This document shows, piece by piece, positions 56,605 to 56,769 of a stretch of 64,000 bases of DNA (its first letter is position 1; each line of letters opens with the position of its first letter). Below the pieces are notes generated by a model. That model had not been told where the DNA came from. It was given only the letters and a program-made list of their open reading frames with translations, and did no database searches. The translations under genes were made by a program, and so were the position numbers. Location of the stretch: NCBI GenBank assembly GCA_042570305.1, contig JBHPGP010000004.1, positions 2,230-66,229 of the forward strand, given 5' to 3'. This DNA comes from Candidatus Omnitrophota bacterium. Its GTDB lineage: Bacteria > Omnitrophota > Gorgyraeia > Gygaellales > JAHJCI01.

Positions 56605-56769
56605 CTATGACTTAACGGGACTGCAACCAGCCAAAGCCGTGCCAACATATATTGCTGCGAGATAATTTGTTGCCTCCGGAGTATCCAGTAACGTTTCTTT
56701 CAATTCCGGAGCTTTGTATGTTTTCTTTCTTGCTTTCTGTTTATTTTTGTGTTTCTTCGCGACACCCAT
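56605..56769 (-). CDS. candidate RiPP precursor peptide, 54 aa: MGVAKKHKNKQKARKKTYKAPELKETLLDTPEATNYLAAIYVGTALAGCSPVKS
   Basis: Below the ORF-track size cutoff; hand-translated codon by codon. GGAGG lies 6 nt upstream of the ATG at 56769, with TAG at 56607..56605. Same strand, 24 nt after the PqqD-like gene and 28 nt before the kinase-like gene. Contains Y18-K-A-P21-E-L23 (YxxPxL). Confidence 0.6.
   Translation of the reverse strand: MGVAKKHKNKQKARKKTYKAPELKETLLDTPEATNYLAAIYVGTALAGCSPVKS

Follow-up and report, generated by a model that had tools for sequence, protein, structure and literature searches.

What is the role of a 54-codon open reading frame (ORF) that lies between a gene for a PqqD-like protein and one for a kinase-like protein, in an operon filled with genes for radical S-adenosylmethionine (rSAM) enzymes? 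The question is raised by a 64,000-nucleotide stretch of DNA from a Candidatus Omnitrophota bacterium (assembly GCA_042570305.1, contig JBHPGP010000004.1, positions 2,230 to 66,229; hereafter the window), in which this ORF occupies positions 56605..56769 of the reverse strand. We hold, with good confidence, that its product is the precursor, or substrate, peptide of an uncharacterised pathway in Candidatus Omnitrophota for a peptide that is made on the ribosome and then modified after translation (RiPP). The substrate role is favoured because a conserved PqqD–peptide–kinase–rSAM operon, a leader motif in the peptide, a catalytic motif in the kinase-like protein and a C-terminal serine come together at this locus. 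The gene and the parts of its product can be set out thus, with the evidence in brackets and RRE standing for RiPP recognition element:

56605..56769, reverse strand: predicted precursor peptide gene (sequence, homologues, purifying selection)
56776..56780, reverse strand: Shine-Dalgarno sequence GGAGG, 6 nt before the ATG (sequence; counterpart in homologues)
56719..56769, reverse strand: residues 1–17, basic and variable N-terminal part of the putative leader, with 7 Lys, 1 Arg and 1 His (alignment)
56701..56718, reverse strand: residues 18–23, Y-K-A-P-E-L, putative RRE-recognition motif of the form Y-x-x-P-x-[LIVM] (alignment, distant loci, profile)
56668..56688, reverse strand: residues 28–34, L-D-T-P-E-A-T, junction and probable leader end (family alignment)
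56608..56667, reverse strand: residues 35–54, NYLAAIYVGTALAGCSPVKS, putative core, hydrophobic, without Asp or Glu, with a single Cys49 and a C-terminal Ser54 (family consensus)

The ORF opens with an ATG at 56769..56767, runs for 54 codons and closes with a TAG at 56607..56605, giving the 54-residue product MGVAKKHKNKQKARKKTYKAPELKETLLDTPEATNYLAAIYVGTALAGCSPVKS. The stop codon of the PqqD gene (56794..57084) lies 24 nt away, and the ATG of the downstream kinase gene (56576) 28 nt away on the other side. An earlier note made from the letters of this DNA had read the layout in the same way—the GGAGG, the 6-nt spacing, the ATG at 56769, the TAG and both gaps—and it was equally right in the translation about Y18-K-A-P21-E-L23, Cys49 and Ser54, and about the places where the lasso consensus is broken, i.e., the absence of Gly nine residues after the Tyr (Y+9) and the position of Thr34 at Y+16. 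Its account of residues 1–17 as basic holds for one Arg and one His, while the nine Lys that it counted belong to residues 1–24 and only seven fall within 1–17; and the tail 36–54, which it had called uncharged, contains K53. That the ORF is unannotated is borne out by a collection of 15 billion protein sequences, from which the exact peptide is missing; since the collection does contain, as NCBI entries of Candidatus Omnitrophota bacterium, the kinase-like and PqqD proteins encoded on either side, the ORF is taken to be unannotated in the source record itself.

A protein search recovered six homologues of 48–54 aa (E = 4e-16 to 6e-11), and scans of genomes and metagenomes brought in 16 related loci, two of them in metagenome-assembled genomes of Candidatus Omnitrophota. 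The resulting family set comprises 12 different peptides, with the segment from Y18 to the stop represented by 9 different DNA versions. Across these DNA versions, the variable sites at codon positions 1, 2 and 3 number 10, 7 and 32 (each of 37) for Y18–S54 and 4, 3 and 23 (each of 27) for codons 28–54, and pairwise nonsynonymous divergence (dN) is 0.02–0.17 against a synonymous divergence (dS) that ranges from 0.3 to saturation, with most pairs saturated. The start ATG and the position of the stop are conserved across the homologues, and GGAGG or GAGG stands 5–8 nt before the ATG in most of them (loci L005, L006, L007, L012, L013, L015 and L021). The coding nature of the ORF had been set beforehand as a point on which the idea could fall; the codon-position signature and the conserved ribosome-binding site both speak for the ORF, and they indicate a genuine, translated gene on which purifying selection acts strongly. 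Members of the family are rare: only two clusters were recovered when 1.84 billion representative proteins were searched with a profile. Scans of the window peptide against Pfam and NCBIfam gave no family match; nor did an Rfam scan of 55.4–58.5 kb. A promoter/terminator scan found no terminator after the peptide gene and promoter-like sites, at the level of consensus only, upstream of the TPR and PqqD genes. The PqqD and peptide genes happen to share a reading frame (start codons 315 nt apart, with one TAG and eight codons between them), such that a hypothetical read-through of that TAG would yield an RRE-leader fusion.

How, then, is the peptide built? In the alignment, M1 is the sole invariant position among residues 1–17, a region whose length differs by 6 residues within the family. 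Set in this otherwise variable basic N-terminus, Y18, P21 and L23 are invariant in all 12 distinct peptides, and the residues between them vary (K/Q/E, A/K/E and E/A/M/V). Residues 28–54 are near-invariant, following the pattern L-[DN]-[TA]-P-E-A-T-N-Y-L-A-A-I-[FY]-V-G-T-A-L-A-G-C-[STN]-P-[AVG]-K-S, of which NYLAAI[FY]VGTALAGC[STN]P[AVG]KS represents the core consensus; no family member has an acidic residue after E32. A sister subfamily (L017, P0038; e.g., MPKNIRHKKLYKKPEMNKVQLNSPEDTAAVVAAAVVIGVVGALVVSTPAKS) displays a comparable organization, with a basic N-terminus, a Y-x-x-P-x-[MI] motif, an "SPEDT" junction and a hydrophobic stretch, and it keeps the [ST]P[AV]KS tail with no Cys. Cleavage of the leader may be placed near residues 34–36 by the shared E-A-[TV] junction, and the core start at about residue 35/36 proposed in the earlier note coincides with the junction motif common to the subfamilies (E at Y+14, A at Y+15, T or V at Y+16), with the caveat on this boundary that near-invariance sets in already at L28, ahead of the proposed core start.

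The partner that would read the leader is encoded immediately upstream:

56794..57084, reverse strand: discrete PqqD-family RRE, 96 aa (Pfam PqqD, 8e-9, above cutoff)

The PqqD gene is syntenic with the peptide in all the related loci. A word-indexed homologue search with the protein returned only itself, and its NCBIfam and PDB sequence matches, the latter led by 9x8z_B (PqqD-family, E = 0.004), 9x90_B (a lasso PqqD chaperone) and TbiB1, weakly point toward lasso B1 chaperones. In lasso leaders the YxxPxL motif occupies −17 to −12, and both the kinase and the protease depend on the B1 RRE for their action; in Bradymonas, phosphorylation is faster with the B1 RRE, and a core peptide stripped of its leader is not accepted by the kinase (PMC10368454). 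From the supplement of the same paper, 46 published lasso precursors were taken, 37 of which were used for an 11-column profile around [YWF]xxP, and this profile was tested on the family, on 927 background ORF segments of the window and on 3400 shuffles. The family members fill the top seven ranks, above nearly all of the 3400 shuffles; the window peptide scores 8.3 bits, the best background segment 8.0 (n=927) and the best of its own shuffles 6.5 (n=200). Because the motif is short, this result is supportive rather than decisive. By these parallels, YKAPEL would be the docking motif for the adjacent PqqD protein.

A broader view comes from the contigs of six more distant homologues of the kinase-like protein, 24–36% identical to it (L017, L019, L021, L023, L024 and L025). 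In all six, an ORF of 51–63 aa lies directly upstream of the kinase gene, with PqqD and at least one rSAM gene alongside, and in four of the six an NTP_transf_5 gene is found within a few kb. The peptides at these loci have unrelated, mostly Cys-rich cores (for example, ...KKKIYQKPTLIEVSLRPDEAVLGNCKSSG...CSSQGS), and they share Y-x-x-P-x-[LIVM], L at Y+10, E at Y+14, A at Y+15, T or V at Y+16 and a C-terminal Ser, with single positions substituted in a few cases in L017 and L019 (e.g., D at Y+15 in L017). Those of L019, L021, L023, L024 and L025 in particular are Cys-rich peptides of 53–63 aa with an ...EAVL... junction and a C-terminal Gly-Ser, and these small ORFs are candidate substrates of PqqD-rSAM-kinase cassettes. 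An NCBIfam scan of the six distant relatives of the peptide gave no family. Closer to the window, the PqqD-peptide-kinase-rSAM synteny is kept in L001–L006 and, more distantly, in L017; in all, 12 distinct homologues on Candidatus Omnitrophota contigs have the PqqD–peptide–kinase arrangement around them. Thus, the proposal of a lasso-type leader on a precursor between RRE and kinase gains from the conserved synteny, from the invariance of Y18, P21 and L23 and from the recurrence of the motif at distant kinase loci, and the predicted conservation of YxxPxL and the C-terminal Ser next to PqqD and rSAM genes is found in homologous and distant loci alike. Two features of the distant loci may be recorded in passing. 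Several of L019, L021, L023, L024 and L025 adjoin polysaccharide co-polymerase (Wzz/GNVR) genes; and in L023 a GATase/Asn_synthase gene (1..1431) is located upstream of the PqqD-rSAM-peptide-kinase set, at a distance of about 6.5 kb, and, with its full GATase domains, looks AsnB-type rather than like a lasso cyclase.

The C-terminal serine directs attention to the kinase-like protein and to a nucleotidyltransferase encoded on the opposite strand:

55566..56576, reverse strand: ScmC/HprK-like P-loop kinase, 336 aa (sub-cutoff NCBIfam matches, AlphaFold2 model, Foldseek)
55944..55970, reverse strand: Walker-A/P-loop G203-H-S-G-D-G-K-S-T211 of the kinase-like protein (alignment of 27 homologues)
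58323..59471, forward strand: divergent NTP_transf_5 nucleotidyltransferase (Pfam PF14907, 2e-51)

All NCBIfam matches of the kinase-like protein are below cutoff, namely ScmC (33.4 bits vs 125) and the HprK-related kinases B and A (HprK_rel_B/A). Precomputed annotation places PF27840 ScmC on the window protein and its homologues, several of the assignments being marked "weak"; the local copy of Pfam, which probably predates the PF27840 model, gave no match. In the 27 kinase-like homologues, H188, G203, S205, G206, G208, K209 and T211 are invariant, and D225 and D226 are each conserved in at least 90%. The H...GxxGxGKS...DD motif is common to the paeninodin-type kinases, and mutagenesis has established that it is needed in the lasso kinase BsfK (PMC10368454); judged by the alignment, the catalytic motif H...GxxGxGK[ST]...DD is retained in the protein of the window. 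Its AlphaFold2 model (predicted local distance difference test score 83.8, predicted template modelling score 0.81) matches phosphoenolpyruvate carboxykinase (PEPCK) at 3e-7 and the HPr kinase/phosphatase structures 1knx, 3tqf, 1ko7 and 1kkm at 4e-4 to 5e-2 in a Foldseek comparison with the PDB. The model would thus belong to the PEPCK/HprK fold, the similarity being at the level of the fold only (TM-scores 0.2–0.44); by sequence, the protein matched nothing in the PDB beyond the P-loop of PhnL. The gene is annotated by NCBI as encoding 263 aa (ACFL1D_01530), 78% of the ORF; the 336-aa start at 56576 is probably right, because homologues of 333–340 aa align from residue 1 and residues 13–160 form a confident beta-rich domain in the AlphaFold2 model.

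In all of the approximately 8 independent lineages the last residue of the peptide is Ser, which is the case in 9.6% of the small stop-to-stop ORF segments of the window, and Y..P.[LIVM] is present in 1.4% of such segments; with these backgrounds, the joint conservation of the two features over about 8 lineages is not due to chance. Among the 46 lasso precursors, the only ones to end in Ser are PadeA, BaceA, PapoA, PsmA, ThcoA and SyanA, all of them kinase-associated. In that setting, a homologue of HPr kinase places a phosphate on the Ser that ends the linear precursor, and a hexose is then added to this phosphate by a nucleotidyltransferase (PMC8498205). The NTP_transf_5 family is also encoded near the peptide in L001, L017, L019, L021 and L023. 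One lineage departs from the common layout: in L007 (3387..3810), L009 (2634..3058) and L010, the peptide ends in TPAKS, the genes for the kinase-like protein and for the second rSAM enzyme of the operon are absent from the visible contig, and the 255 nt after the peptide gene are non-coding and contain GC-rich hairpin and T-run elements, possibly an attenuating terminator.

Beyond the peptide and its immediate partners, the operon runs on the reverse strand from a TPR gene down to an exporter (enzymes are numbered in the order of the genes):

57163..58173, reverse strand: TPR protein with a hydrophobic N-terminal segment (membrane-anchored), first gene of the operon (Pfam TPR families)
53826..55472, reverse strand: B12-binding rSAM enzyme 1, 548 aa (Pfam B12-binding and Radical_SAM)
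52816..53829, reverse strand: rSAM enzyme 2, 337 aa, paired with enzyme 1 (Pfam/NCBIfam; absent in the L007/L009 lineage)
51614..52795, reverse strand: rSAM/SPASM enzyme 3, 393 aa (Pfam Radical_SAM and SPASM)
50612..51610, reverse strand: fusion of a signal-peptidase-I-like (S24/S26) domain with GNAT, 332 aa, candidate leader peptidase/acyltransferase (Pfam Peptidase_S24 and Acetyltransf_1)
48803..50566, reverse strand: B12-rSAM enzyme 4, 587 aa, paralogue of enzyme 1 (Pfam/NCBIfam)
47816..48793, reverse strand: rSAM enzyme 5, 325 aa, paralogue of enzyme 2 (Pfam/NCBIfam, locus comparison)
46447..47814, reverse strand: B12-rSAM enzyme 6, 455 aa (Pfam)
45119..46387, reverse strand: divergent rSAM-like protein 7, 422 aa (weak Pfam Radical_SAM match, 4e-4)
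43621..45087, reverse strand: rSAM enzyme 8, 488 aa (distant relatives in L001 and L007)
42562..43578, reverse strand: GNAT protein, 338 aa, paralogue of the peptidase/GNAT fusion with a degenerate peptidase domain (Pfam, alignment)
41046..42569, reverse strand: B12-rSAM enzyme 9, 507 aa (L006 orthologue 66% identical)
39522..41134, reverse strand: ABC-2 exporter, with ATPase 40313..41134 and permease 39522..40331 (orthologues in L001, L006 and L017)

The operon thus encodes four B12-rSAM and five other rSAM enzymes. The domain architecture of the B12-rSAM enzymes fits the RiPP C-methyltransferase subfamily TIGR03975, against which they score 122–125 bits (cutoff 281.85). Enzyme 1, nearest in NCBIfam to ApyD at a sub-cutoff 265 bits, has an orthologue in every locus that is long enough, and PDB sequence searches with three of the rSAM enzymes gave only generic rSAM relatives. 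Enzyme 3 has the ACGX-system rSAM and SbtM models as its nearest NCBIfam neighbours; it is present in those Cys-containing loci that reach that far and has no orthologue in the Cys-less L017 cluster. As the nearest models are Cys-modifying maturases and the SPASM enzyme co-occurs with the Cys, it probably targets Cys49. The peptidase/GNAT fusion matches the NCBIfam model sigpep_I_arch (TIGR02228, archaeal/ER-type signal peptidase I) with 57.5 bits vs a cutoff of 51.85; its GTSM (Ser) and IIHRV (His) motifs are intact, and orthologues occur in L006, L009 and L017. Its paralogue at 42562..43578 has lost both motifs and may serve in substrate binding only; an N-terminal membrane segment, usual with signal-peptidase-I-type domains, is missing from both proteins.

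The related loci retain the order TPR–PqqD–peptide–(kinase)–B12-rSAM–rSAM–SPASM–peptidase/GNAT–rSAM–GNAT–B12-rSAM–ABC with fewer rSAM genes than the window, and the TPR protein has orthologues in L001, L005, L006, L007, L009 and L017. A module made of a B12-rSAM gene and a gene for an rSAM enzyme of about 330 aa is duplicated in the window (53826..55472 with 52816..53829 vs 48803..50566 with 47816..48793, all on the reverse strand). Orthologues elsewhere are about 46–50% identical to the paralogous copy—those of enzyme 1 in L001, L005 and L006 are 46–48% identical to enzyme 4—and L017 has one such pair, while L006 has the enzyme 1–2 pair and a lone orthologue of enzyme 5. A PMT_2 (ArnT/PMT-like) glycosyltransferase gene adjoins the NTP_transf_5/PqqD genes in the window, L001 and L017, and sulfatase-family genes do so in the window and L001 (regions 59537..63782, reverse strand, in the window, 1849..5020 in L001 and 4599..6050 in L017); Wzy_C and GT2 genes stand beside the cluster of the window. 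The PMT_2 and sulfatase genes may be members of the pathway or merely syntenic envelope genes, and such neighbours are a hint, not evidence, of a link between the cluster and the cell envelope. About 27 kb from the cluster, genes for SAM synthetase and S-adenosylhomocysteine hydrolase are adjacent (10886..13303, reverse strand) and are probably ordinary housekeeping genes; the ORFs scanned in the remainder of the window are housekeeping and envelope genes.

These elements can be assembled into a pathway. The approximately 34 N-terminal residues would form the leader, whose Y18-x-x-P21-x-L23 would be bound by the stand-alone PqqD/RRE, as in lasso B1 recognition, and the RRE would then present the peptide to enzymes that have no RRE of their own. 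The hydrophobic C-terminal part (about 35–54) would be modified by the B12-rSAM enzymes, most likely by C-methylation, and the other rSAM enzymes would also act on the core. The ScmC/HprK-like kinase would phosphorylate Ser54 and the NTP_transf_5 protein might extend the phosphate, by analogy with paeninodin and pseudomycoidin. The cytosolic signal-peptidase-like/GNAT fusion would remove the leader and may acylate the new N-terminus, and the ABC-2 transporter would export the product. Of these steps, we infer the RRE docking, the phosphorylation of Ser54 and the cleavage site.

Several observations sit uneasily with a substrate that is processed in this way. Conservation is far higher in the core than in the leader, opposite to the pattern in most antibiotic RiPPs. 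The match of the PqqD protein to its best NCBIfam model, lasso_PqqD_Bac, is weak (28 bits vs a cutoff of 80), as are its PDB matches (E-values of 0.004–0.24), and the NCBIfam matches of the rSAM enzymes all fall far below the equivalog cutoffs, so that their reactions are not assignable. Loci that share the invariant core differ in their number of rSAM genes, from about 4 to 9, which would be unusual if all of these enzymes acted on one peptide. Finally, the peptide of L007, L009 and L010 ends in Ser, yet a kinase gene is found neither beside it nor on the visible contig; in this lineage the kinase may be encoded elsewhere, or phosphorylation may be an accessory step. Taken together, the kinase-less lineage, the variable rSAM complement and the greater conservation of the core make a diversifying antibiotic seem less likely than a product under strong functional constraint, which might be structural, cofactor-like or directed to the membrane. 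The conserved envelope-type neighbours hint in the same direction.

The same conservation of residues 28–54 and the variable enzyme set, atypical as they are of a diversifying RiPP core, lend themselves to a different explanation: the ORF might encode an accessory or regulatory protein—a scaffold, an immunity peptide or an ORF for translational coupling—with the rSAM enzymes acting on another peptide, an envelope glycan or a lipid. B12-rSAM and rSAM enzymes do act on lipids and cofactors as well, and HpnJ, BchE and Tes are among the NCBIfam near-matches here. Against this, the gaps elsewhere in the operon measure 24–93 nt and are therefore too short for a further precursor gene, proteins of the PqqD family are chaperones of peptides, and the leader-like motif is one held in common with proven substrates, the lasso precursors. 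Moreover, the distant loci shrink to PqqD, one rSAM gene, a Cys-rich ORF and the kinase gene, a minimal enzyme-substrate layout. We therefore regard an accessory role as improbable, and as the best placed of the alternatives to a precursor.

Marginally less probable again is a tiny lipoprotein or membrane micro-protein, in which LAGC would act as a lipobox and leave a lipidated Cys-Ser-Pro-Val-Lys-Ser, or in which the peptide would be a single-pass anchor. LAGC does fit a lipobox and is invariant in 12 Omnitrophota peptides; A45-L-A47/G48 forms a formal AxA site, of the signal-peptidase-I type, and the operon has a signal-peptidase-like gene; some 20 residues of the L017 relative form a hydrophobic stretch; and envelope genes (PMT_2, sulfatase-family, Wzy_C and GT2) flank the cluster. 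A true signal peptide would, however, have to accommodate 18 polar/acidic residues between its basic n-region and its h-region with only 5 residues after the Cys, and here the supposed signal part is the most conserved, unlike ordinary signal peptides. The sister subfamily (L017, P0038) has the same [ST]P[AV]KS tail and operon without the Cys, the peptidase-like domain lacks a membrane segment, and the coupling to PqqD, kinase and rSAM genes would go unexplained. The idea of a Sec/Lsp lipoprotein was accordingly rejected on the polar insert, the hyper-conservation of the signal part and the Cys-less sister subfamily.

A genuine lasso precursor, with its B2 protease and Asn-synthetase-like cyclase encoded elsewhere in the genome, has much less to be said for it and is very improbable. 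It would account for the YxxPxL-type leader, for a PqqD protein with lasso B1 as its best family, and for the HprK-like kinase, the NTP_transf_5 gene and the C-terminal Ser, as in the paeninodin and pseudomycoidin clusters. Asn_synthase and transglutaminase-like B2 are, however, absent from the operon and from the 40 window ORFs scanned against Pfam (nine of them from 1..29.3 kb), in which the only peptidase-like domains are of the S24/S26 signal-peptidase type; cyclase and B2 were likewise not found in the related loci L001, L005, L006 and L017. Residues 33–54 contain no Asp or Glu that could act as the acceptor of an isopeptide ring (core position 7–9), and the operon is filled with rSAM genes instead. 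With no cyclase or B2 among the scanned ORFs and no acidic acceptor, a true lasso peptide was ruled out as far as sequence allows. Last, a chance ORF in a spacer or 5' untranslated region, for which its shortness and lack of annotation in the source record might be cited, can be dismissed as refuted by the codon-position pattern and a dN well below dS across the 9 DNA versions, along with the conserved start, stop and ribosome-binding site, the homologues across metagenomes and the lack of an RNA family match.

Returning to the precursor peptide, a bolder generalization may be offered, tentatively and as something rather less than an even prospect: the ORFs upstream of ScmC/HprK-like kinases would be the substrates of a superfamily of PqqD + kinase + rSAM cassettes, a new RiPP class that reuses the leader/RRE/kinase/nucleotidyltransferase logic of lasso peptides without the lasso fold. 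In Omnitrophota, the product would then be a hydrophobic peptide, invariant and heavily C-methylated, whose C-terminal Ser is phospho(glyco)sylated; it would be membrane-inserting or envelope-anchoring and possibly polytheonamide-like, in putatively host-dependent ultrasmall bacteria.

As a RiPP precursor with an RRE-binding leader, the peptide is of a well-known kind. What appears new is a lasso-type leader/RRE/kinase/nucleotidyltransferase set that would feed an rSAM/B12 pathway, with a signal-peptidase-like/GNAT fusion as candidate peptidase, in Omnitrophota; no description of such a system was found in 8 million full texts outside the subscription-only literature, and kinases are not mentioned in the RRE-Finder paper. 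With its predicted substrate gene in hand, a "hypothetical" rSAM-rich operon from an uncultivated phylum becomes a biosynthetic pathway that can be put to the test, and the locus suggests that the lasso-type leader/RRE/kinase module is portable and can serve rSAM chemistry. Such portability would be of use in genome mining, with Y-x-x-P-x-Φ ... Ser-COOH beside PqqD and ScmC genes as the signature, and in leader-guided enzyme engineering. The small ORFs are also candidate substrates for ScmC-family cassettes; no family model matched them (Pfam and NCBIfam for the window peptide, NCBIfam for its distant relatives), and no paper that describes them was found. An invariant core together with up to nine rSAM enzymes promises unusual chemistry, and the function of the product may be structural or membrane-directed rather than antibiotic.

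Among the known systems, the sactipeptides, the ranthipeptides and the SbtM-type thio-oxazole systems resemble the window cluster in that an rSAM/SPASM enzyme co-occurs with Cys49 and in that the distant peptides are Cys-rich. They differ in that the window peptide has one Cys, its RRE is a separate protein rather than an N-terminal domain of the rSAM enzyme, and many more enzymes are present. A second parallel may be drawn with the proteusins such as the polytheonamides, which are matured by the B12-rSAM C-methyltransferases PoyB/C and the rSAM epimerase PoyD. Shared with these are several B12-rSAM enzymes and a core rich in Val, Ala, Gly and Ile, the L017 core AAVVAAAVVIGVVGALVV being especially similar in composition. 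In contrast, the leader in the window is lasso-like and about 34 aa long, not the nitrile-hydratase-like/Nif11 leader of about 100 aa, the core has about 20 aa, and the cluster has a kinase and a nucleotidyltransferase with no epimerase identified.

The SynChlorMet (Scm) and HprK-related kinase A/B systems (TIGR04248-04251, TIGR04352, TIGR04355; PF27840) come closer, combining PqqD with an HprK-like ScmC and a PqqE-like rSAM enzyme, and these models are the best NCBIfam matches of the window kinase-like protein. The window scores are nevertheless below cutoff throughout (ScmC 33.4 vs 125, ScmD 25.2 vs 100, ScmE about 78–101 vs 400 and ScmF 74 vs 400), and the canonical SynChlorMet cutoffs are reached by none of the distant loci. 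Canonical SynChlorMet membership was rejected on these scores, and the distant loci would be of the ScmC family, not Scm cassettes. To our knowledge, the TIGRFAM text lists the Scm precursor as unidentified; in the window, a conserved small ORF with the shared leader lies directly upstream of the kinase gene.

The closest likeness of the leader and kinase is with the phosphorylated and phosphoglycosylated lasso peptides, i.e., paeninodin (PadeA-B1-K), pseudomycoidin (PsmA-K-N) and the Bradymonas system (BsfA-B1-K-N). A short Y/W-x-x-P-x-L leader with a stand-alone PqqD-type RRE (B1), an HPr-kinase-like protein with H...GxxGxGKS...DD, a Ser end, an NTP_transf_5-type gene and ABC export are common to both. 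The window cluster differs from them in being without B2 and cyclase and in a core without Asp or Glu, from which no lariat is possible. It differs also in its maturases, four B12-rSAM and five other rSAM enzymes together with the signal-peptidase-like/GNAT fusion, and in the junction, where E-A-T stands at Y+14 to Y+16 in place of the Gly at Y+9 and Thr at Y+15 of the lasso leaders.

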